From an uncultured Mycoplasmatota bacterium (GTDB lineage Bacteria > Bacillota_I > Bacilli_A > RF39 > UBA660), in assembly GCA_900545005.1 (NCBI GenBank), contig UQXO01000004.1, positions 13,661 to 77,660 on the forward strand: 64,000 nucleotides of DNA, given 5' to 3'. Positions within the stretch are counted from its first letter, which is position 1; each line of letters starts with the position of its first letter. The notes below the pieces were generated by a model. That model worked only from the letters and a program-made list of their open reading frames with translations. It was not told the origin of the DNA and made no database searches. Positions 2,769 through 55,507 of the stretch are shown piece by piece. Made by a program: the position numbers and the translations under genes.

Positions 2769-4424
2769 ATGGGTTATATTAATATGAAGAAATTTAATAA
2801 AGATAAGTATTTAATGAAATTAAAATTTAAGAAGTATAAGAGATACTTATATATAGGAATACCTTGTCTCTTAGTATTATTAGCAGGAATATATTTTGCT
2901 TATTCAAAGTTTAGTGTCTTTAAAGAGGAAGAAGTAGTAAGAACTACGGTAGGAGATTTTATCTCTGGAGATATAGTTATTACCCCTTATATAGATGGAG
3001 AATACTCTAAGACTATACCTGGTAAGAATGATGGTTATGTAGTAGAAAAAATAGTTTGTGATAATGATGCTTCTGCTAGTTGGGATAATGATTCTTGGGG
3101 AATAATGGTTACTAACTTAACTAAGAGAACAAAGTGCAATGTGTATTTTAAGAAGTACAATCCTGTTGATAAAGTTATTGCTCAATTGGATACAAGCGGT
3201 AAGTGTCCAACTATCAATAGTGATGGGACAGTTAATGTTACTAAAGAAGAGACAACAGATGGTTATGTTTGTAGTGCTCCGGATGCTTATGGAACTAGTT
3301 ATTATTATAGGGGCAATGTTACTAATAACTATGTAAAGTTTGCTGATAAGTATTGGCGTATTATCCGTATTAATGGCGATGGTACAGTTCGTGTAATCTA
3401 TGATGGAACCTCTGCTCATGCTAATGGTAAAAGTAGTACGGATAGACAAATCGGCACTTCCGCATTTAATAATTATTGGAAGAAAGATAATGTCCAAGAA
3501 GCTACTAATTCACTTGTTTATTATGATAATGCTGGTGTTGGCTATATGTATGGTAATCGTGATGCGATAGTAGAAGCTACTGAGTATTATTCAACAATTG
3601 GTTTTACAAATACAAATAATTATTTTATAGCTAAAGAGTATACATATGATGCGACAACTGACAGATTTACTTTAAAAGATCCGATTTCCGTATCAGCTTG
3701 GACGATGACCTCAGACTATGTCGGCTATTATACTTTTGGTAGTCCAGTTGATATAACTTATAATTCGTATGTATATAAAATATTGGGGGTAACAGCAGGT
3801 GATTCAAGTACTTCCGTAAAATATGGTTATGTTAGGTATGGAACATCCAGTAAAGAAGTAGCCCAGACTAATACCAATGATTCAACCATAAAAACTTACT
3901 TAGATAATTGGTATAAAACCAATATTTCTGGTACGGAAAATGAACAATATTTAGCAGATAATATATTCTGTAATGATCGCAGTTTTGCATCTAATAATTC
4001 TGGAACTGGAACTGAAGCGGGAGTAAGTAAAACATATTACAATTGGTATAATTGGCATGCATCAAAGTCTAATTTAAAATGTCAACAAAAAAATGATGCT
4101 TTTACGGTAAGCGATACTACTAATGGAAATGGGGATTTGACTTATCCAATTGGTTTAATAACGACTGATGAGACTGTACTAGCTGGTGGATGGGATGCTG
4201 ACAATAAGGGTTATTACCTATATTCGGGGTCATGGTATTGGTCTTCCTCGCCGTACAGTTTTAACGGCGGCTACGCTGTCGTAGAGTTCGTGGGTTCGAG
4301 TGGTAGCGCTCACAACAACCGCTACAACGTGAACTACGCCGGCGGGGTAAGACCTGTCTTAAATTTATCAGCAGAAGTATTAAATAACGGTGATGGAAGT
4401 ATGAATAATCCTTACTGTCCGTGA
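2769..4424 (+). CDS. Membrane-anchored extracellular protein with a C-terminal DUF1566/C-type-lectin-like domain; paralog of 53909..55507
   Basis: The N-terminus has a basic stretch followed by a TM helix (YLYIGIPCLLVLLAGIYFAY). The C-terminus reads GSWYWSSSPY...AGGVRPVLNL...GDGSMNNPY, matching the YWSS...VRPV pattern of Lcl/DUF1566-type lectin folds. An alternative start is the ATG at 2784. Confidence 0.65.
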   Translation: MGYINMKKFNKDKYLMKLKFKKYKRYLYIGIPCLLVLLAGIYFAYSKFSVFKEEEVVRTTVGDFISGDIVITPYIDGEYSKTIPGKNDGYVVEKIVCDNDASASWDNDSWGIMVTNLTKRTKCNVYFKKYNPVDKVIAQLDTSGKCPTINSDGTVNVTKEETTDGYVCSAPDAYGTSYYYRGNVTNNYVKFADKYWRIIRINGDGTVRVIYDGTSAHANGKSSTDRQIGTSAFNNYWKKDNVQEATNSLVYYDNAGVGYMYGNRDAIVEATEYYSTIGFTNTNNYFIAKEYTYDATTDRFTLKDPISVSAWTMTSDYVGYYTFGSPVDITYNSYVYKILGVTAGDSSTSVKYGYVRYGTSSKEVAQTNTNDSTIKTYLDNWYKTNISGTENEQYLADNIFCNDRSFASNNSGTGTEAGVSKTYYNWYNWHASKSNLKCQQKNDAFTVSDTTNGNGDLTYPIGLITTDETVLAGGWDADNKGYYLYSGSWYWSSSPYSFNGGYAVVEFVGSSGSAHNNRYNVNYAGGVRPVLNLSAEVLNNGDGSMNNPYCP

Positions 4425-10483: not shown

Positions 10484-11398
10484 ATGGAACATTATAGTGT
10501 ATTGCTTAATGAAACTATAGATAATTTAAATCTTAAAGAGGATGGTATTTATGTTGATGCCACCTTAGGACTTGGGGGACACTCTAGTAAAATTTTAAGT
10601 AGTTTAACAACTGGTCACTTATATGCCTTTGATGAAGATAGTAAAGCAATTTTTTTTGCTGACGAACGTTTAAAAAAGATTGGGACCAATTATACGTTAA
10701 TTAAAAGTAACTTCGTTGATTTAAAAGTTAAGTTAGCAGAACTTGGTGTTACCAAAATTGATGGAATTGTCTTTGATTTAGGTGTTTCTTCTCCACAGAT
10801 TGATGATGCTACCCGTGGCTTTAGCTTTAGTAAAGATGGTATTCTTGATATGCGAATGGATACTGATGCCACCTTAAGTGCGGAAAAAGTCGTAAATGAG
10901 TATTCTAAAGAAGCTTTAACTGATATTTTCTTTAGTTATGGAGAAGAACCTAAGAGTAGATTGATTGCCAGTAAGATTGCATCTTCCCGTCCTATTAAAA
11001 CTACTTTAGAATTAGTTAAAATAATTGAAAGGGCCGTCGGCGCTAACTACTTTTATAAGAAACATCCTGAACGTAATATCTTTCAAGCTATTAGAATTGA
11101 AGTTAATAAAGAATTATCGGTTCTAAAAGAAGTATTACCTGATGTCTTAGACCTTTTAAAACCAGAAGGAAGAGTAGCTATAATTACTTTCCATTCTCTA
11201 GAAGATCGAATTGTAAAAAAATTCTTTAAAGAAAATAGTGAAGTTAATGAATTAGTTAAAGGCTTACCAACTATTCCTGAGGCATATAAACCTAAATTAA
11301 AACTAATAACTAAAAAACCTATTTTACCTAGCACGCAAGAACTAGCTGAGAATTCTCGTAGTAAAAGTGCAAAATTACGAGTAGCAGAAAGGATTTAA
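10484..11398 (+). CDS. rsmH: 16S rRNA (cytosine1402-N4)-methyltransferase RsmH (MraW)
   Basis: HYSVLLNETI, DATLGLGGHS, DLGVSSPQID and FHSLEDRIVK are present. The ATG at 10484 fits the family N-terminus better than 10454. Confidence 0.92.
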   Translation: MEHYSVLLNETIDNLNLKEDGIYVDATLGLGGHSSKILSSLTTGHLYAFDEDSKAIFFADERLKKIGTNYTLIKSNFVDLKVKLAELGVTKIDGIVFDLGVSSPQIDDATRGFSFSKDGILDMRMDTDATLSAEKVVNEYSKEALTDIFFSYGEEPKSRLIASKIASSRPIKTTLELVKIIERAVGANYFYKKHPERNIFQAIRIEVNKELSVLKEVLPDVLDLLKPEGRVAIITFHSLEDRIVKKFFKENSEVNELVKGLPTIPEAYKPKLKLITKKPILPSTQELAENSRSKSAKLRVAERI

Positions 11399-11399
11399 A

Positions 11400-11699
11400 A
11401 TGAAATCAGAAAAGAATAATAAAAGGGATAAAAAATTATTTATACTAATTATCTTAGTCTTAATCCTCTCGCCACTATTGCAAGTTGTTACGAGAGCTAA
11501 GTTAAGCGAGGTTAATATTGAAGTAGAAAAACTAAAGAATAATATTGAAGAACAAGAGAATGTTAATGAGTCGGTAGAAATGCAAATTAATGAGTTAGCA
11601 TCCCTAGATAAGATTAGAGAAATTGCTAAAGAAAATGGTTTATCTTATAAGAATAATAATATTACTAGTATAGATAAGGATGAAGATAATGAAAACTAA
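11400..11699 (+). CDS. ftsL: Cell division protein FtsL-like
   Basis: It is 99 aa with a single TM helix and a coiled-coil region. It lies between rsmH and the PBP2B gene. Confidence 0.65.
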   Translation: MKSEKNNKRDKKLFILIILVLILSPLLQVVTRAKLSEVNIEVEKLKNNIEEQENVNESVEMQINELASLDKIREIAKENGLSYKNNNITSIDKDEDNEN

Positions 11700-13809
11700 G
11701 AAGAATAGAAATATCTATTTTAGTAAAATTGTTCTTTTGCTTTTAATTTTTCTTTTTATTGCTCTTATCGGTAAACTAATTTATATTTCCTTATCAAAAG
11801 AAATCGATGGCATTGACTTAAAAGCTTATGCCGAGAAAAGAAATACGACTAAGAAAATATTATATGCCCATCGTGGTAATATCTATGATAAGAGTGGTAA
11901 CTATCTAGCCAGTACCGTTAATTCTTATACCTTAATTGCTTATTTAAGTGATACCCGAACTACTAATCCCAATAAACCTCAACACATTGTAGATAAAGAA
12001 CTAACAGCAAAAAAACTAAGCGAAGTATTTAATAAAAATGGTAATAAAAATATGACTTATGATTATATCCTAGAACGTCTTAATACTGAGAATAAATATC
12101 AAGTCGAATTTACTTATGCTAAAGATATCTCTGAGACCCTAAAGCAAGAAATTGAAAGCTTAAATTTACCAGGACTAGATTTTGCAGTCTCATCTAAAAG
12201 ATATTATCAAATGGGAGATTTTGCTTCTTATATTGTTGGCTATTCTAAAAAAGATGATGAAGGTAATATTAACGGAGAAATGGGGATTGAAAAGTATTGC
12301 AATGCCACCTTAAAGGGGGAAAATGGTTTTAGTGAATATCAAACCGATAATTATGGTTATAAGCTTCCGTATGCCGAAGAAAACATTAAACAAAGCAAAT
12401 CTGGTAATGATATTTATTTAACAATTGATAATAATATTCAATTATTTGTTGAGCAAGAAATTAATAATCTTTCGACTAATTATAACTATACCTGGCTTAC
12501 TTTGACCGTTGCTGATGCAAAGACTGGTGCCATTCTAGCTAGTGGGGCTTCACCATCTTTTGATGCTAATAAACTTAATATGACTAATTACTTAAATCCT
12601 TTAGTATCTTATTCCTATGAACCTGGTTCCACGATGAAAATATATTCCTTTATGAGTGCTATCGATAGTGATCTTTATAATGGTGATGAAAAATATATGT
12701 CCGGAACCATTAAAGTAAGTGATGCTACTATTAAAGACTTTAATAATGTCGGGTGGGGTAGTATTACGTTCGATGAAGGTTTTAGTTACTCTTCTAATGT
12801 TGCTGCGACCATTCTTAGTCAAAGACTAGGTAAAGAAAAGTTAAGTGAATATTATGAAAAGTTTGGTTTTGGTAAACAAACTGGTATCACTTTACCCGAA
12901 GAGGCCAGTGGCACAATTGATTTTAACTATACTACCGAAATAGCAACAGCTTCCTTTGGTCAAGGAATTACCACAACTCCTATTCAAAATATCCAAGCCT
13001 TAACGACTCTAGCCAATGATGGCGTAATGCTAAAACCATACATTATCTCCAAAATTGTTGATAGTGCCACTAAAGAAGTTATTTATGAAGGTAAAAGAGA
13101 AGAGATTGGGCAAATTGTAAAAAAAACTACGACTGATAAGATGAAAACAATGATGCATGATGTTGTCTATTCTGGAAAAACTGATGCCCGTTATTTTAAA
13201 TCTAATCTTGTTGAAGTCATGGGAAAAACAGGAACAGCTCAAATTGCGAATCCTAGTGGTGGGGGTTATTTAACAGGAGACTATGATTATGTTAAATCCT
13301 TTGCCATGTTATTTCCTTATGATAATCCCCAGTACATAATATATTTTTCGGTTAAACAATTCCAAGGAGCTTTTAAAAATGCCGCGAGTGCGATAGTTAA
13401 TATTGTGGATGAGATTGCTAAATATAAAAATTTAGAACAAAAGACTAAAGAATCAACAAATACTAATATTATTACTTTAGATAATTTTGTTAATACAGAT
13501 ACCTTAACTACTACGGATAAATTAAAACTCTTAGGACTTAATCCTATTGTCTTAGGAAATGGAAATACTATTATTAAACAGTATCCTAATCAAGATAATA
13601 AAGTCTTAATTGGTAGTAAAGTCTTTTTAAAGACTAACGACTCTTATGTAATGCCTAATACCGTTGGCTATTCTAAAGCTGAATTAATTGCGTTATGTCA
13701 TCTTTTAAATTTAAAATATGTAATTAATGGAAGTGGTAAAGTGGCTTCCCAAAGCATCCCCGAGGGCAGTGCTATTCCCCTTGAGACTATAACTTTTAAC
13801 TTGGCTTAG
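11680..13809 (+). CDS. pbpB: Division-type class B PBP (PBP2B/FtsI) with two C-terminal PASTA domains
   Basis: GSTMKIYSF (SxxK), YSSNVAA (SxN) and GKTGTAQ (KTG) are present. Two PASTA-like repeats fall in the last ~130 aa. The start could be 11689. Confidence 0.88.
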   Translation: MKIMKTKKNRNIYFSKIVLLLLIFLFIALIGKLIYISLSKEIDGIDLKAYAEKRNTTKKILYAHRGNIYDKSGNYLASTVNSYTLIAYLSDTRTTNPNKPQHIVDKELTAKKLSEVFNKNGNKNMTYDYILERLNTENKYQVEFTYAKDISETLKQEIESLNLPGLDFAVSSKRYYQMGDFASYIVGYSKKDDEGNINGEMGIEKYCNATLKGENGFSEYQTDNYGYKLPYAEENIKQSKSGNDIYLTIDNNIQLFVEQEINNLSTNYNYTWLTLTVADAKTGAILASGASPSFDANKLNMTNYLNPLVSYSYEPGSTMKIYSFMSAIDSDLYNGDEKYMSGTIKVSDATIKDFNNVGWGSITFDEGFSYSSNVAATILSQRLGKEKLSEYYEKFGFGKQTGITLPEEASGTIDFNYTTEIATASFGQGITTTPIQNIQALTTLANDGVMLKPYIISKIVDSATKEVIYEGKREEIGQIVKKTTTDKMKTMMHDVVYSGKTDARYFKSNLVEVMGKTGTAQIANPSGGGYLTGDYDYVKSFAMLFPYDNPQYIIYFSVKQFQGAFKNAASAIVNIVDEIAKYKNLEQKTKESTNTNIITLDNFVNTDTLTTTDKLKLLGLNPIVLGNGNTIIKQYPNQDNKVLIGSKVFLKTNDSYVMPNTVGYSKAELIALCHLLNLKYVINGSGKVASQSIPEGSAIPLETITFNLA

Positions 13810-13898
13810 TCCAAGTTTTTTTGGGTAAAATTTTCAAAAAGATATTGCAAAATATTTAAAATGTGTTAGGATATTTAAATGTTGTAAGGGAGAATATT

Positions 13899-15389
13899 AT
13901 GGATAGAAATTTAATTATGCATTGTTATTATGATGTTAGTACTTCTTTAAAGGAAAATAAGCCTTTAGTGGAAGTTACCGAAAAATTACAAGCTTTAGCT
14001 GATAAGTATAAAATGTCACTTTTAGATTTAACAGAGATTGCTTTAGAGGCTGGGTATTATAAATCCCAGATACCAGAAGAAGACTTAAAAAAATATCGCG
14101 ATACTATTAAAAAAATTAGAAAACCCCTTTTGGCGTTGCGAAGGGAACAATTAAAAGGAAAAAGAATAAATCCTCAGGTTGAAGACTTAAAAACTACTAG
14201 AGAAAAAATGTATCTATATAAATATTTTGATGCTCTTTTAAAGGCCTATAATTTAGAAATGCCTATTGAAATATCCTTAATAATTATTAGTGAAAAATTA
14301 GGTCTAAATATTGATGATATTAAAAAATATAGTAAAATTTATCTCGAAAAATATGCCTTGGGTTCAGAAAAAAACAATTATAATCAAAAGTTAAAAAGAC
14401 AGGCCAGATTAATTAATAATCCTACTAAAGCTTTTGTGAACAATTCTTTAGCTTATCAAGTTATTCAAATGGCTAGTAGAGAAAAGGGAAGTAAATTAGG
14501 AGCTAAGATAGCCTTTATTCTTAGTGATACTACTAATTACGATTTAAATGCAATTAAGAATATTATTTTTAAAGAATATGCTGATAAGTTAAATAGTGTT
14601 AATGATGAAGAATATAGACAATATCTCTTTACTAAAGAAGAAGAAATAATGTCTGTTCTAAATTATGTAATAGAAGAAAAAAGTAAAAGAAATCAGCCAG
14701 ATTCTAAAAGCTCTAGAGAGCCCCGAATCTCTAAAGAAAAATTAGAAAATTTAAAACGTTTCTTAAGTGCTAATATGACTTTAAAAGATTTTGGAAATAC
14801 TGATGCTTTTTCCAAAGGAAATAGAGGGATATCTGGAGTTAGAAAGTATTTAGAAAGTGCTTGTGGGGTTGATGAAGCATTAAAAGAAAAGTTAAGAATG
14901 CACATTCATACAGTTGAAGAGTATGAATTATCATATTTAAATACCATCCTTGAACTTCTTTTAGACTTTCGTAAAAACGGGGTTATAAATGGTGCTTCTA
15001 AAAGAGAGTTTGATATATTAGATTATTATTGTCTTACTAATTATCCTCTAACAGATTTAAGGACAGCTTTAATAAATAATCATTTAATTGCTGATAGTGA
15101 TTTAACTTATCTTTCTTCTTTAGCCTCTAAAGATGATCTTCATAAATATGCTTATAATAAAGTTTCTTTAGATAGTTTTCTTAATGATGTTACAGGTTAT
15201 TCAATTGATGGCAAGATGCGTTATTTAACTAAAGAAGAAAAAGAAGGAATCTATGAATTCTTTGAATGTTATAATATTCCCGCTACTAGTTATAGTATTA
15301 GAACTGCTGTCAATAGATATTTAAAGGGAACTCTTTTCCTTCCAAGCAAGAGCCTTGATAAACAATTAGCTAGAATTAAAAAAGACTAA
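13899..15389 (+). CDS. Hypothetical, predicted helical, K/E-rich protein (~497 aa)
   Basis: A long ORF has AAGGGAGA 6 nt upstream of the ATG at 13899. I recognise no motif. There is no TM segment or signal peptide. Confidence 0.6.
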   Translation: MDRNLIMHCYYDVSTSLKENKPLVEVTEKLQALADKYKMSLLDLTEIALEAGYYKSQIPEEDLKKYRDTIKKIRKPLLALRREQLKGKRINPQVEDLKTTREKMYLYKYFDALLKAYNLEMPIEISLIIISEKLGLNIDDIKKYSKIYLEKYALGSEKNNYNQKLKRQARLINNPTKAFVNNSLAYQVIQMASREKGSKLGAKIAFILSDTTNYDLNAIKNIIFKEYADKLNSVNDEEYRQYLFTKEEEIMSVLNYVIEEKSKRNQPDSKSSREPRISKEKLENLKRFLSANMTLKDFGNTDAFSKGNRGISGVRKYLESACGVDEALKEKLRMHIHTVEEYELSYLNTILELLLDFRKNGVINGASKREFDILDYYCLTNYPLTDLRTALINNHLIADSDLTYLSSLASKDDLHKYAYNKVSLDSFLNDVTGYSIDGKMRYLTKEEKEGIYEFFECYNIPATSYSIRTAVNRYLKGTLFLPSKSLDKQLARIKKD

Positions 15390-21123: not shown

Positions 21124-22404
21124 ATGGATATTAATTATATTACAATATCAGACTTAAATCGTTATATTAAGGCTAAATTTGATGTCGATGGTAATCTAAA
21201 TAATGTTTATTTAAAAGGAGAAATCTCAAATTTTAAACATCATACTAGGGGGCATTTCTACTTTACTTTGAAAGATGAGTCTTCTAGAATAGCAGCGGTT
21301 ATGTTTAATTTTAATGCTTCCAAAGTTAACTTTGAACCAGAAGATGGTATGAAAGTTTTAGTTAGTGGTCGTATTAGTGTTTATGAAGCTACTGGATCTT
21401 ATCAAATCTATGTTAATACCATGGATGTTGATGGTATAGGAAACTTATATTTAGAATATGAAAAACTAAAGAAAAAGCTGGCGACTGAAGGTCTTTTTGA
21501 TCAAAACCATAAAAAACCAATTCCCCGATTTCCTAAGACTATTGGGATTATTACCGCTCCTACGGGGGCTGCCATTAGAGATATCTTAAGCACCATTAAA
21601 AGAAGATATCCTATTGCTAAAACTATTCTTTTTCCGGCCTTAGTTCAAGGAACTGGTTCGAAAGAATCAATTGTTAAACAGTTAAAAAAAGCTCAAGAAT
21701 ACGACTTAGATGTTATTATCTGTGGGCGTGGAGGTGGTTCGATTGAAGACTTATGGAGTTTTAACGAAGAGATAGTAGCCCGGGCTATTTACGAATCTAA
21801 AATTCCCGTTATCAGTGCCGTTGGGCATGAAATTGACTTTACCATTGCCGACTTTGTGGCTGATTTAAGGGCACCAACGCCAACTGGTGCCGCCGAAATG
21901 GCAGTGCCTAATCTCACTGATTTAAACAATTATTTAAATCAATTAAAGATTAGAATAACTAAAGCAATGGAAAATAATCTTAACGAAAAAGAAAGTCGTT
22001 TAAAGACACTAACAACAAAGCAGATATTAAAAAATCCTTTAAGTATTTACGAAATTAAAGAACAGAAACTAGATAATTTATTAGATAGGTTGAATCTATA
22101 TATTAATAATAAACTTAGAGAGGATACTCTTAAATATCAAAGAATTATCGATAATATTCTCTTTAAGGAGCCAAAAAAATTATTAGAAAGAAAAGAATAT
22201 CAATTTAATATTCTTTTAAAGACAATAACAATCCTTAATCCAATGAAACTCTTAGAAAGTGGGTATAGTGTTGTTAAAAGTAAAGATACAATAGTTACTA
22301 GTATCGCTAAAATAAATAAAGATGATTTGTTAAAAATCACCTTAAAAGATGGGGTAATTAATGCCAAAGTGGTAAGTAAGGAGGGCAATCATGGCCAAGA
22401 ATGA
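21124..22404 (+). CDS. xseA: Exodeoxyribonuclease VII large subunit
   Basis: YLKGEISNFKHHTRGHFYFTLKD, GIITAPTGAAIRD and GRGGGSIEDLW are present. Confidence 0.93.
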   Translation: MDINYITISDLNRYIKAKFDVDGNLNNVYLKGEISNFKHHTRGHFYFTLKDESSRIAAVMFNFNASKVNFEPEDGMKVLVSGRISVYEATGSYQIYVNTMDVDGIGNLYLEYEKLKKKLATEGLFDQNHKKPIPRFPKTIGIITAPTGAAIRDILSTIKRRYPIAKTILFPALVQGTGSKESIVKQLKKAQEYDLDVIICGRGGGSIEDLWSFNEEIVARAIYESKIPVISAVGHEIDFTIADFVADLRAPTPTGAAEMAVPNLTDLNNYLNQLKIRITKAMENNLNEKESRLKTLTTKQILKNPLSIYEIKEQKLDNLLDRLNLYINNKLREDTLKYQRIIDNILFKEPKKLLERKEYQFNILLKTITILNPMKLLESGYSVVKSKDTIVTSIAKINKDDLLKITLKDGVINAKVVSKEGNHGQE

Positions 22405-32497: not shown

Positions 32498-32638
32498 ATG
32501 AATTCAAAAAATAATGCAAGAAACAATGCTAAGAACAATGCTCGTAATAAAGCAAAAAGTTCTACTAGATGTCATAACACTGCTAAAAATAACAGTAAAT
32601 GTCATGCAAAATCCAATGAATTAAATGATGAAATTTAG
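32498..32638 (+). CDS. 46-aa N/A/K-rich peptide with two Cys-His pairs; not in the ORF track
   Basis: AGGAGG lies 6 nt upstream of the ATG. My translation is MNSKNNARNNAKNNARNKAKSSTRCHNTAKNNSKCHAKSNELNDEI. Confidence 0.45.
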   Translation: MNSKNNARNNAKNNARNKAKSSTRCHNTAKNNSKCHAKSNELNDEI

Positions 32639-40118: not shown

Positions 40119-41583
40119 ATGAAACCTCCTTTGCTATTTGATTCTTATAATTCATCGTTTTTTCAATCCCATAAGCAATATTTAAAACCGTCTGGTCATT
40201 ATAACAATCACCAGTAATATTTAAACCAACTGGTAAATTATCTACAAATCCATCTGGTATTGTAATAGAAGGAAATCCTCCAAAGTTACCTATCTGTAGA
40301 TGTTCTTCTAATATTTTTGAACCACCAGCCAAAGTATTTTGCGACTTTTCTAAGAAAGGAGCCGGACCACTACCAACTGGTAAAATAACCGCATCATAGT
40401 CTTTAAATAATTCTTTCCATTTATTAACAATTAATCTGCGAACCCGTTTAGCATTATTAAAGTATTTATCTTGGTTTTCTCTTTGTAGTACATAAGAGCC
40501 AATAACAAATCTTCTCTTAATTAGTGGAGAAAAACCCTTAGTACGATGGTCTTTCATGGCTTCATAAATATTATTAGCACATCCTCTTGGTCCAAAGTTA
40601 ATGCCCGTCAAGTTGGACATGTTAGATGTTGCTTCTGCACAAGATATTACTACATAACAAGATGCTACCGCATCCAGTAAAGTCTTATCAACACTAACTT
40701 CATCAACCGTAATTCCTCTATTTCTTAAATCATTAACTTTATCCATAAAATTATTTAAATGAGTTTTTAACTCCTCACTTGGCGTCTCATAATTATCTAA
40801 AGATACTATTTCTTTAACATAACATAATCTTCTAGTCTTTAAATCATCCTTTAAGTTTTCATATAAATGCATATTACTACTATCCCAAGAAGTCATATCC
40901 TTTTCATCTTGACCCTTAATTACATCCGTAACAATCGCAGCATCAGCTACATTTCTTGTTAAAACGCCACAATGGTCTAAACTAGAAGCAAAAGGAAACA
41001 AGCCATATCTAGAAATCATCCCGTAAGTAGGTTTATAGCCAACTATACCACAATAAGCAGCTGGTTTACGAATAGAATCTCCTGTATCGCTTCCTAAAGC
41101 GTAAGGATAAACCCCTGCTGCCACGGCCGCCGCTGATCCACTTGATGAACCCGCACACATTCTTCTAGTATCCCAAGGATTTCTAATGATACCAGTTTTA
41201 GCTGTCGTACCAGTACCACCCATACCAAACTCATCCATGGCCGTTTTATTAGTAGCAACCGCCCCAACCTTCTTTAGTTTTTCAATAACAGTCGCATCAA
41301 AGAAAGGAATATAACCAGTTAAAGTATTACTAGAGGCACAAGATTCAATATCTTTTGTTGAATAATTATCCTTAATTCCATAAGGAATCCCACTAAGTAA
41401 ATTATCTGTAACTTTACTACCTTTAGCATCATCTAAAATAAGAGCAAAAGCATTACATTTATCTTCAATTTCCTTCGACTTTTCTAAAGATTCACCAACT
41501 AATTCCTCAGAAGTAATTTCTCCCTTAATAAGCATTTCATGTAATTTTTTAATATCTAATTCATTATGCATTTTCACCAACAA
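40111..41583 (-). CDS. gatA: Asp/Glu-tRNA amidotransferase subunit A
   Basis: The amidase signature GGSSGGSAAAVAAG-like sequence (AGSSSGSAAAVAAG) is present, followed by GSDTGDSIRKPA. Confidence 0.95.
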   Translation of the reverse strand: MLVKMHNELDIKKLHEMLIKGEITSEELVGESLEKSKEIEDKCNAFALILDDAKGSKVTDNLLSGIPYGIKDNYSTKDIESCASSNTLTGYIPFFDATVIEKLKKVGAVATNKTAMDEFGMGGTGTTAKTGIIRNPWDTRRMCAGSSSGSAAAVAAGVYPYALGSDTGDSIRKPAAYCGIVGYKPTYGMISRYGLFPFASSLDHCGVLTRNVADAAIVTDVIKGQDEKDMTSWDSSNMHLYENLKDDLKTRRLCYVKEIVSLDNYETPSEELKTHLNNFMDKVNDLRNRGITVDEVSVDKTLLDAVASCYVVISCAEATSNMSNLTGINFGPRGCANNIYEAMKDHRTKGFSPLIKRRFVIGSYVLQRENQDKYFNNAKRVRRLIVNKWKELFKDYDAVILPVGSGPAPFLEKSQNTLAGGSKILEEHLQIGNFGGFPSITIPDGFVDNLPVGLNITGDCYNDQTVLNIAYGIEKTMNYKNQIAKEVSYE

Positions 41584-53908: not shown

Positions 53909-55507
53909 TTACTGCATTTTCAAAGTATACGGATTCGAACTCTCGCCTGTACCTTTATCCAGCAGGATACTAGATTTCAGAAAAAGGGTTGGACGGATGA
54001 CAGCATTAAGAGAATTTGAAGCATAATCAGGGCGCACACTGCCGAAAGAGTACACGGTAAACACTCTCTCAGCATCAACCGGATATGGCATCATTGTCGA
54101 TTGATCAGCATTTGAGTTATATAAATAATCATTTCCTTTACAATCGCTAAAATCGGAAGCTTCCCAATTATAAAGTTCCTTTGCTAGACAAGCTGCTCTA
54201 TCTTTTGAAGACCCGCCACTAGTTGCATAACCATAATCACTTGGATACATTAAACCAATTTTACCGGTCCAAGTAGTAGCATGACCACTATAAACGGTGG
54301 TTCCTCTTTCATATATATAGGAATCACTTGGAAGAAAGTTATTCTCCCCATTATCATCATATCCACCTAAATTCCACATAACTTCTTCGATGGCATTTCT
54401 TGTTGTATCATTTTTTAAGCCATCAGAAGAGAAATCTACTTCCGTACAACTAAATGATTCCCCACCACCAATCGCAGCTGGTGAACAACCTTTGGTGCCA
54501 TTATAATAAGAACCCATTTTACTATATAATTGTTGACTTCCTAAGGAGATTATATCACTAGAATTAGTGTATCCGGATTTTAAATAGTTAGTAGGATTTA
54601 ACATCATCATAAGTTGAGAATCACTCCAGTCATTCGAACCATCATCACTAGTAGATGTTCCTACCCCGTTCTTTTTATAATCCCAAGAATAGTTACCTAA
54701 AGAATCAGCTCTTATAATCTTAACTAAATTTTCTTTTGTTCCATCTCCCTTAGTTACATTATTAAAGACCCCAATAATACGCCATAATTCGCAAGTATCA
54801 GCTGTTGGATTAGAATAATCACTACAGTTAAAATATACATAGTTACTTGGGTCTTTACCAATATATCTTACATTATTATCCGCATCATCAGTAGCTAAAT
54901 TAACAGTATCTTTTGTAGCTAAATTAGCAATATAACTATTTACAGGACCTTTTTCATTAGAAGGTACCCCTTTAATAATTATCTTAGACTTTAAGACTTT
55001 AGTTTCATTATTTAAATCATCTAAAGTAGTATTATAATCAATCCATAATCTAATAGAATATTCTTTAGTATTATTCTTAAACAAAGTGCCAGTATCAAGT
55101 ACCCTCGATTCAATACTAGTAGTATTGACAACATCAGTAGTAGTTAAACCATTTAACAACTTGGGTTCATTATTATTAACCATAACCTTTAAATAATCAC
55201 TAGCTAAAGTAGTCCCCTTAAGACTTTCTAAACTAACTGTATAAGCAGCCGCCATATCACAAACATTTTTGATACTAAAGGTAAAAGGGGTTAGTGTTTT
55301 ACCTTTGGCATCTGTTATGGGATAAGCGTTATCTAATTTAATTGCATTACTTTGATTAGCTAATGTAATATCAAAACAATCAGTAGTAGAAATAACATTA
55401 TCCGTATCTTGACTTACTCTCATATTCCACATGGAATAAGATAAGCCTATTCCCAATAAGATTAACAAACATATTGATACCCCAACAAACATAATATTCT
55501 TTTTCAT
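53909..55507 (-). CDS. Membrane-anchored extracellular protein, paralog of 2769..4424 (lectin-like C-terminus)
   Basis: It has an N-terminal anchor (IMFVGVSICLLILLGIGLSY). Blocks shared with the paralog include PV..(Y/V)IA.L.T, SNYVYF...WRII, GKIGLMYPSDY versus YPIGLITTDE, and AVIRPTLFL...GTGESSNPY versus GGVRPVLNL...GDGSMNNPY. Confidence 0.65.
   Translation of the reverse strand: MKKNIMFVGVSICLLILLGIGLSYSMWNMRVSQDTDNVISTTDCFDITLANQSNAIKLDNAYPITDAKGKTLTPFTFSIKNVCDMAAAYTVSLESLKGTTLASDYLKVMVNNNEPKLLNGLTTTDVVNTTSIESRVLDTGTLFKNNTKEYSIRLWIDYNTTLDDLNNETKVLKSKIIIKGVPSNEKGPVNSYIANLATKDTVNLATDDADNNVRYIGKDPSNYVYFNCSDYSNPTADTCELWRIIGVFNNVTKGDGTKENLVKIIRADSLGNYSWDYKKNGVGTSTSDDGSNDWSDSQLMMMLNPTNYLKSGYTNSSDIISLGSQQLYSKMGSYYNGTKGCSPAAIGGGESFSCTEVDFSSDGLKNDTTRNAIEEVMWNLGGYDDNGENNFLPSDSYIYERGTTVYSGHATTWTGKIGLMYPSDYGYATSGGSSKDRAACLAKELYNWEASDFSDCKGNDYLYNSNADQSTMMPYPVDAERVFTVYSFGSVRPDYASNSLNAVIRPTLFLKSSILLDKGTGESSNPYTLKMQ

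Follow-up and report, generated by a model that had tools for sequence, protein, structure and literature searches.

The prototype of the diversity-generating retroelements (DGRs), the Mtd/Brt system of Bordetella phage BPP-1, reportedly carries a 35-bp initiation of mutagenic homology (IMH) element followed by a downstream GC-rich hairpin or cruciform, and is said to act by adenine mutagenesis of AAC codons, with a variable region (VR) at the C-terminus of the target protein and a GC-rich VR 3′ element in common with the template repeat (TR). In the gut, DUF6273, a C-type-lectin-like domain of DGR targets with the VR at its C-terminal end, is diversified by DGRs of Firmicutes phages and prophages, i.e., in the tentaclins of crAss-like/nd phages (PMC10743442) and in the Faecalibacterium prophages Lelie, CP11, Roos and Pioen (PMC11792537). 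A chromosomal DGR with seven non-adjacent targets has been described for TvpA of Treponema denticola (Wu et al. 2018, PMC5758913). Here we analysed a 64-kb stretch of contig UQXO01000004.1 from an uncultured Mycoplasmatota bacterium (hereafter the window), in which a gene for a membrane-anchored protein carries a short patch rich in GC and NNC codons (positions 4245–4349) near its 3′ end. This patch is most likely a retired ('fossil') DGR variable region: we consider it probable, with real room for doubt, that it was written by a DGR at the end of a DUF6273-like domain, has since been uncoupled and now forms one fixed binding surface.

The patch is in frame with its open reading frame (ORF) and encodes SSPYSFNGGYAVVEFVGSSGSAHNNRYNVNYAGGV. 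It begins with TCCTCGCCG and ends with GGCGGGGTA, and the codons that follow TCCTCGCCG are TAC AGT TTT AAC GGC GGC TAC GCT GTC GTA GAG TTC GTG GGT TCG AGT GGT AGC GCT CAC AAC AAC CGC TAC AAC GTG AAC TAC GCC GGC GGG GTA. A sequence-only reading of the same DNA had put its GC content at about 58%; the measured value is 0.581 over 105 nt, compared with a mean of 0.296 (standard deviation 0.057) for 105-nt windows across the 64 kb, and the maximum of the whole stretch (0.59) lies at position 4243, i.e., at the patch. The same reading had counted 19 NNC codons among the 35 and called C-ending codons rare elsewhere, which holds against a background of 8.5% of the 18,115 codons in 47 ORFs (binomial p ~5e−12), and the top 14 NNC-rich 35-codon windows among all ORFs are every one inside the patch. 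Genome-wide, AAC:AAT and TAC:TAT stand at 142:1134 and 120:909; the patch has six AAC and four TAC, with neither AAT nor TAT. Only two other stretches reach a GC content ≥ 0.50 (21800–21922 and 41037–41222); they are conserved housekeeping-gene cores, read by eye as an XseA-like and a GatA-like amidase sequence, and have no NNC periodicity. As had also been stated from the sequence, no repeat of the patch, reverse transcriptase (RT; tblastn E > 0.8), bAvd or AAC-rich template was found over the 64 kb. An Asn-rich frame at 32501–32542 was considered as a TR and rejected, as this intergenic stretch is a tandem repeat (12-nt unit, ~3 copies) unrelated to a DGR template.

In related genomes, a bAvd gene (PF22296) and an RT gene adjoin a gene of the same protein family (loci L149, L150, L208–L215, L224, L225 and L229). 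The cassette of RT, bAvd and TR lies beside one paralog in 'Mycoplasma sp. CAG:956' (L149) and in the metagenome-assembled genome (MAG) CAKOOR (L150). It consists of an RT of 369 aa (Pfam RVT_1, motifs LPIGNMSSQ and YMDD), a bAvd of 117–121 aa, and as TR a short non-coding AAC/AAT-rich stretch reading WWASSPNNFNG.NANVRNVNSNGNANN.NNVNN.NGVRP. It recurs in many metagenome contigs, with RTs 90–99% identical, at a conserved chromosomal site with the order MetRS ... FemAB, bAvd, RT, TR (convergent), target gene, aldehyde dehydrogenase. In CAKOOR, the TR (contig 1) was compared with VRs on three other contigs of this MAG: mismatches fall at 20 of 38 adenines and 0 of 85 non-adenines for contig 4 (L177), at 19/38 and 1/85 for contig 8 (L147), and at 22/38 and 2/85 for contig 5 (L160). 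Strains with a common TR have wholly different cis VRs, each with 0 non-adenine mismatches (L209, L210, L223, L225, L214, L224 and L226). As the CAKOOR template matches VRs on other contigs, with mismatches nearly all at adenines, the family is proven to be targeted by a DGR in trans: in several paralogs of the relatives, the chromosomal cassette rewrites the ~29 codons that lie between TCCTCGCCG and GGGGTTCGGCCAG, at template adenines only. The suggestion made from the sequence, that the patch occupies the VR position of a DGR target protein and that its NNC and GC richness is a DGR footprint, is thereby borne out by homologous paralogs, which are textbook VRs accompanied by bAvd, RT and TR.

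The cassettes show some further features of their own. In L149 the TR lies at 12104–12259 (+), RT at 12516–13625 (−) and bAvd at 13597–13962 (−), a layout repeated in L150 and L208–L215; in this L149-type RT group, bAvd and RT are encoded on one strand and the TR on the other, where it converges on the RT 3′ end at ~275 nt from the RT stop codon, whereas in a related RT lineage (P0162; L236) target, TR, bAvd and RT are all on the same strand. The TR-RT-bAvd cassette of L150 has on either side a 55-nt inverted copy (11173–11227 and 15194–15248, 98% complementary) of a 'collapsed' VR (TGGTGGGCTTCCTCGCCG, 18 nt, GCGGGGTTCGGCCAG), the adjacent family gene ends in this collapsed VR, and the copies might mark an inversion or a cassette insertion. 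Two short metagenome contigs contain reciprocal TR/VR chimeras, one with the TR upstream flank, an unmutated all-AAC body and a VR-type downstream coding flank (L220: 596–660), the other with the coding upstream flank of the gene, an all-AAC body and the TR downstream flank (L221: 1527–1591); these are either products of homologous recombination between TR and VR or repeat-assembly artefacts. In CAG:956 (L149: 9992–11720 and 11649–11888), the target adjacent to the cassette is split into two ORFs; part of it is duplicated internally (165-nt and 107-nt repeats, 79% identical), and its 120-nt 3′ tail is tandemly duplicated (86%). Between its VR and the neighbouring TR there are 13 non-adenine mismatches, while VRs are clean in other strains whose RT is 99% identical, and the cis target of this reference strain looks degenerate.

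VR segments (n = 75) were scored against 10 TR variants from relatives and metagenomes, and form a continuum that we describe in four classes. Class 1 (12 VRs) has 0–1 non-adenine mismatches, an intact GGGGTTCGGCCAG, a GC content of 0.48–0.66 and an NNC fraction of 0.48–0.59; class 2 has 3–7 non-adenine mismatches, often codon indels, 0–2 changes in GGGGTTCGGCCAG and GC and NNC values of about 0.5 each; class 3 has 13–21 non-adenine mismatches and 0–5 changes in the same element (mostly 3–5), with GC mostly ~0.5 and NNC 0.4–0.6; and the fully decayed class 4 has at least 28 non-adenine mismatches, 2–6 changes in the element, and mostly a GC content of 0.23–0.41 and an NNC fraction of 0–0.17. 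The window patch belongs to class 3, with 15 non-adenine mismatches and one extra codon (a 3-nt gap) relative to the best of the 10 variants. Against every sampled TR it has 11–16 non-adenine mismatches, compared with 0–2 in active VRs, and its core (Table 1) is on par with active VRs in GC and NNC content and above the long-decayed VRs of paralogs (GC 0.23–0.40, NNC 0–0.15). When the 30-codon core is set against the TR of L224, mismatches occur at 22 of 40 adenine sites and at 11 of 50 non-adenine sites (p = 0.002); within AAY codons, positions 1–2 are changed in 22/40 cases and position 3 in 3/20 (17/20 kept), and the frame TCCTCGCCG...GGGGT is the same as in the TRs and VRs of relatives. 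In L215, the five AAC codons of the TR are replaced by six codons in a VR that otherwise differs from this TR at adenines alone; slippage by one codon in this run therefore occurs, and the extra codon of the window is not disqualifying.

Homology to TRs, adenine-enriched mismatches, retained third positions of AAY codons, abundance of NNC codons and freedom from stop codons are thus all found together in the patch. Since the mismatches are adenine-biased even against non-cognate TRs, the patch carries the footprint of adenine mutagenesis while being the current product of no sampled template. Among the TRs of three RT lineages (P0148/P0155/P0159, P0160 and P0162) none is cognate to it. The TRs of the P0160 lineage (76% identity, a TR of 30 codons) and of the P0162 lineage (61% identity, with the TR 3′ element GGTGTGCGGCCCA, serving 'MSP...GVRPT' paralogs) fit no better than the 10 TR variants, and the RT-guided look-ups of the three lineages have no sample in common with window-type contigs.

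The 3′ end of the patch differs from that of active VRs. The 13-mer GGGGTTCGGCCAG is common to every sampled TR of the L149-type RT group, except for the TR/VR chimera of L220, and is present in all cleanly matching VRs, as the 12 VRs with 0–1 non-adenine mismatches have 0/13 changes in all 12 cases. The corresponding 13-mer of the window, GGGGTAAGACCTG, is changed at 4 of 13 positions, toward the host-preferred codons AGA CCT. The sequence-only reading had seen an IMH-like end in an uninterrupted run of G and C followed by a hairpin. The run itself is there (cgccggcgggg, 11 nt, 4337–4347) and ends inside the 13-mer, but this is no intact IMH-type element; likewise, the inverted repeat is present but folds at just −1.3 kcal/mol, a value reached or surpassed by 41 of 200 shuffles, coincides with the codons of V-R-P-V-L and is absent from the active VRs of relatives, which have no significant structure downstream either.

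Variation at the locus was assessed in 31 distinct protein variants, members of 90%-identity clusters. The VR of the window occurs in 23 of them and a close haplotype in seven (S510P, S513N, Y523F and A524F, linked to a divergent 3′ tail), while the remaining one (P0130) is a recombinant allele with a wholly different VR; outside the VR the protein varies at 45 positions. Active diversification, for which the sequence-only reading had proposed a comparison of strains, is not supported by these variants, since 30 of 31 carry two close haplotypes, unlike the active cis targets of relatives, which differ in every strain. In two independent metagenome contigs (L227 and L228), 98.5% identical to the window over 9–13 kb, the patch is identical. 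The identity of the patch in L001–L005 was discarded as evidence of invariance, as these loci had been retrieved by exact protein identity and the argument would be circular. In L006, ~30% of the positions in the last 66 nt after the VR (11591–11656) differ from the window, compared with 6/105 in the VR and ~4% in the gene body, and P0125 joins a cluster-1 body to a haplotype-B tail; haplotype A (the window) and haplotype B thus form a sharp recombination mosaic where the gene ends. Within the VR, 4 of the 6 differences between the two haplotypes are at positions that are adenines in related TRs.

Three other alleles of the same locus are more distant. L008 (flanks 95–98% identical) has a VR with a GC content of 0.50 and 21 non-adenine mismatches, L134 from MAG CAKOOW (syntenic flanks 93–96% identical) one with 0.42 and 27, and L243, which encodes P0130, one with 0.55 and 13; they have the flank ...GT(T/A)AGACCTGTC in common. 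P0130/L243 was considered as an active version of the window locus and rejected on account of its 13 non-adenine mismatches. None of the 9 paralogs in CAKOOW, the nearest named genome, has a class-1 VR. The alleles of this locus lack a common alternative set of non-adenine bases, and therefore give no positive evidence for one hidden template.

Searches for a template outside the window were made with two patterns. A template-compatible pattern with third codon positions fixed had no match in the GTDB representative genomes, and as not even the VR itself was matched, this allele of the species is missing from that collection. The second pattern, a general one for TRs of the clade that had recovered known TRs, retrieved 9 TRs and 2 window-type VRs from metagenome contigs, none of the 9 TRs being cognate to the patch, and had no match in viral contigs. 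In assembly OROK01, the window-type contig L227 (NODE-441, coverage 4.82) co-assembles with the cassette contig L224 (NODE-301, coverage 4.99), in which the cis VR differs from the TR at adenines alone. L224 shares 98.5% identity with L214, its flanks are 80–87% identical to CAG:956, and no sequence overlap assigns it to the species of the window; in ULNY01, the second assembly with the window VR, no TR was seen. If L224 belongs to the same genome, the window copy would be a target retired while the DGR of its genome still works; if it does not, the lineage may have lost the cassette. In either case the patch is unmatched by the L224 template.

Taken together, these data are in our view best accommodated by the following course of events. 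The bAvd-RT-TR cassette of this gut Bacilli clade copies its template by error-prone reverse transcription with randomisation of adenines, and the mutagenised copy goes into the matching 3′ segment of several paralogs, including genes distant from the cassette. Randomising the adenines of an AAC-rich template yields stop-free NNC codons and leaves a GC-rich, adenine-poor scaffold in an AT-rich gene. The variable core of the window was probably written in this way in the past, either directly or via gene conversion from an active paralog, and would then have been uncoupled by decay of its 3′ element to AGA CCT; it is the decay of this element to host-preferred codons, together with the lack of any remaining template match, that leads us to regard the VR as uncoupled. 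It would now be inherited as ordinary sequence, as the fixed binding surface of a presumably exposed DUF6273-like domain. An origin unrelated to DGRs, such as acquisition of the segment from an organism of higher GC content or an oddity of codon usage in a conserved motif, is hardly credible: it would be compatible with a 64-kb window devoid of RT and TR and with a patch invariant in most strains, but every codon of the patch can be aligned to genuine TRs and VRs of its own protein family, with an exact 5′ frame, its mismatches are biased to adenines with third positions retained, and the remaining GC peaks belong to the cores of ordinary enzymes and lack the NNC periodicity. The mosaic structure of the gene in L006 and P0125, the presence in each genome of at least 10 paralogs whose VRs lie between conserved flanks, and the resemblance of L220 and L221 to reciprocal TR/VR recombinants would all suit an import of the patch by homologous recombination or gene conversion from a diversified paralog or another species, followed by stasis. 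This scenario departs from a retired VR in the last step only, as the sequence would still be DGR-made, and with no donor paralog carrying the window VR among the 75 VR segments we regard it as quite improbable.

The sequence-only reading had left the choice between a remote target and a relic, and it is the relic that fits better, because the VR is near-invariant in the 31 strain variants and has too many non-adenine mismatches to the sampled TRs for an active target. Some observations nevertheless weigh against a retired VR. The non-adenine mismatches of the patch lack the AT bias expected from decay in a genome of 30% GC (T to C occurs three times), so that descent from a different TR variant fits better than long drift. 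Both window haplotypes, L243, L008 and L134 have the same AGACCTG flank with wholesale differences in the core, a hint that rewriting occurred with this flank already in place, and the nearly equal coverage of L224 and L227 means that the genome may still own a working DGR; a cognate template may exist elsewhere in it. On such grounds the patch could be a remote target on which a lineage-specific DGR still acts, with RT and a TR ending in ...GGGGTWAGACC elsewhere in the genome and with diversification so rare or conditional that one haplotype prevails in the sampled strains. Very different VR alleles at one syntenic locus with flanks 93–98% identical, T to C changes that suggest another TR variant, the concentration of haplotype differences at related-TR adenines (4/6) and the documented existence of remote targets > 100 kb from the RT of a chromosomal DGR (PMC5758913) all speak for it. 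We nonetheless judge it unlikely, as an identical VR in 23 of 31 strain variants and a close haplotype in seven contrast with the cis targets of relatives, no TR with such an end was found in 79 GTDB-representative loci, metagenome contigs or viral contigs, and the class-3 VRs with the AGACCTG flank lack the common non-adenine bases expected from a single TR. Episodic rewriting of the locus by a lineage-specific DGR, from a template with this 3′ end outside the sampled TRs, is correspondingly doubtful; if true, it would explain how wholly different GC- and NNC-rich VRs with the same 3′ flank come to stand in genomes that are 93–98% identical in their flanks.

Table 1. Positions of the gene, its protein domains and the parts of the patch in the 64-kb window
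Feature	Position	Strand	Evidence or remark
Gene	2769–4424	+	ORF, 551 aa, membrane-anchored family member
N-terminal hydrophobic helix, ~residues 24–48, YLYIGIPCLLVLLAGIYFAYSKF	2838–2912	+	Sequence; AlphaFold helix 24–48; family-wide conservation
C-terminal domain, ~residues 351–551, DUF6273-like, VR near end	3819–4421	+	Pfam matches in homologs
5′ framework TCCTCGCCG (Ser-Ser-Pro)	4245–4253	+	Identical to 5′ end of template repeats and active VRs of relatives
Variable core, 30 codons, GC 0.56, NNC 60%	4254–4343	+	Codon-by-codon homology to AAC-rich TRs, with the AAC run longer by one codon
Degraded 3′ recognition element GGGGTAAGACCTG	4344–4356	+	4/13 mismatches to GGGGTTCGGCCAG
Small inverted repeat taaga-cctg-tctta	4348–4361	+	No significant structure

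The N-terminal helix of the encoded protein is a probable signal anchor, which would leave the remaining protein outside the cell. The protein itself has no Pfam match at E ≤ 1 and no NCBIfam match, and a profile search of PDB with it gave no sequence match. DUF6273 (PF19789) is matched in the equivalent region by the homologs P0005 and P0024 (66–82% identity; 26.6–27.7 bits, cut-off 23.5) and by 9 of 17 diverse C-terminal domains of the family. AlphaFold2 models of the whole protein and of the C-terminal domain were both of low confidence (mean predicted local distance difference test score of 50.4 and 41.0, respectively, with the C-terminal domain < 50), and a C-type-lectin fold of this domain would follow purely by analogy with the DUF6273 literature (PMC10743442). 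All family members have a C-terminal frame in common, YYLYSG.WYW.SSP followed by ~29 variable residues and GVRPV.NL...G.G...PY. More than 7,000 homologs were found in metagenomes; in GTDB representative genomes, where a MAG has at least 10 family paralogs, the family is hosted by 'Mycoplasma sp. CAG:956' and by several MAGs labelled 'uncultured Bacilli' that come from gut samples, those of the Hadza among them. The neighbourhood of orthologs is conserved (TPR, TPR, window gene, RNase HIII), among housekeeping genes.

Two further groups of family-like proteins were observed. In the P0058–P0120 subfamily (~600 aa), residues ~130–551 are ~80% identical to the window protein and the N-terminal module differs, being longer by ~130 residues after the anchor, which points to shuffling of N-terminal domains within the family. 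Within the window, an ORF of 532 aa at 53909–55507 (−) has a P0058-type-like N-terminal anchor and a C-terminus ...SVRPDYASNSLNAVIRPTLFLKSSILLDKGTGESSNPY that resembles the end motif of the family; it has no Pfam match, its VR-equivalent segment has a GC content of 0.47 and an NNC fraction of 0.20, and its DNA has 79–82% identity with stretches of MAG CAKOOW that lie close to family genes (L139 and L153). It is probably a distant, non-DGR-like paralog of the family.

Compared with the DUF6273 DGRs of phages, the system of the relatives has the same setting in the gut, an AAC-rich TR, a cassette of bAvd and RT, and homologs that match the same Pfam domain with the VR at its C-terminal end. It differs in that cassette and targets are chromosomal and stand among housekeeping genes (MetRS, aldehyde dehydrogenase), with no phage genes nearby and no match in viral contigs, and in that the targets are at least 10 membrane-anchored cellular paralogs; the window copy, in addition, matches no TR. 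As in Treponema denticola, one cassette serves several distant targets with adenine-only mismatches to a single TR (CAKOOR). Differences lie in the host clade (uncultured Bacilli near CAG:956), the target family, the convergent orientation of TR and RT gene, and the graded series of partly and fully decayed VRs that the genomes hold, the window copy included. With BPP-1 it would have in common the adenine mutagenesis of AAC codons, the C-terminal VR and the GC-rich 3′ element present in both VR and TR; as opposed to what is reported for that phage, however, the 3′ element of the relatives is just ~13 nt long (GGGGTTCGGCCAG), has no significant hairpin and is degraded in the window.

The window copy, apparently retired, belongs to a familiar type of system and by itself leaves current understanding unchanged; its interest is modest alone and somewhat greater as part of a family with diversification in trans and a series of decaying VRs. 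A reading of codon composition alone can correctly flag DGR-made sequence even with the retroelement tens of kb or more away. For annotation, a GC- and NNC-rich patch at the 3′ end of a gene of this family marks a DGR target, whether current or past. In this clade of uncultured gut Bacilli (relatives of CAG:956), one chromosomal DGR diversifies several members of a surface-protein family in trans. Genomes in which active VRs stand side by side with mismatched and decayed ones could serve to study the gain and loss of DGR targets, as their recruitment and retirement may be read from the graded series, for example via the decay of the 13-nt recognition element.

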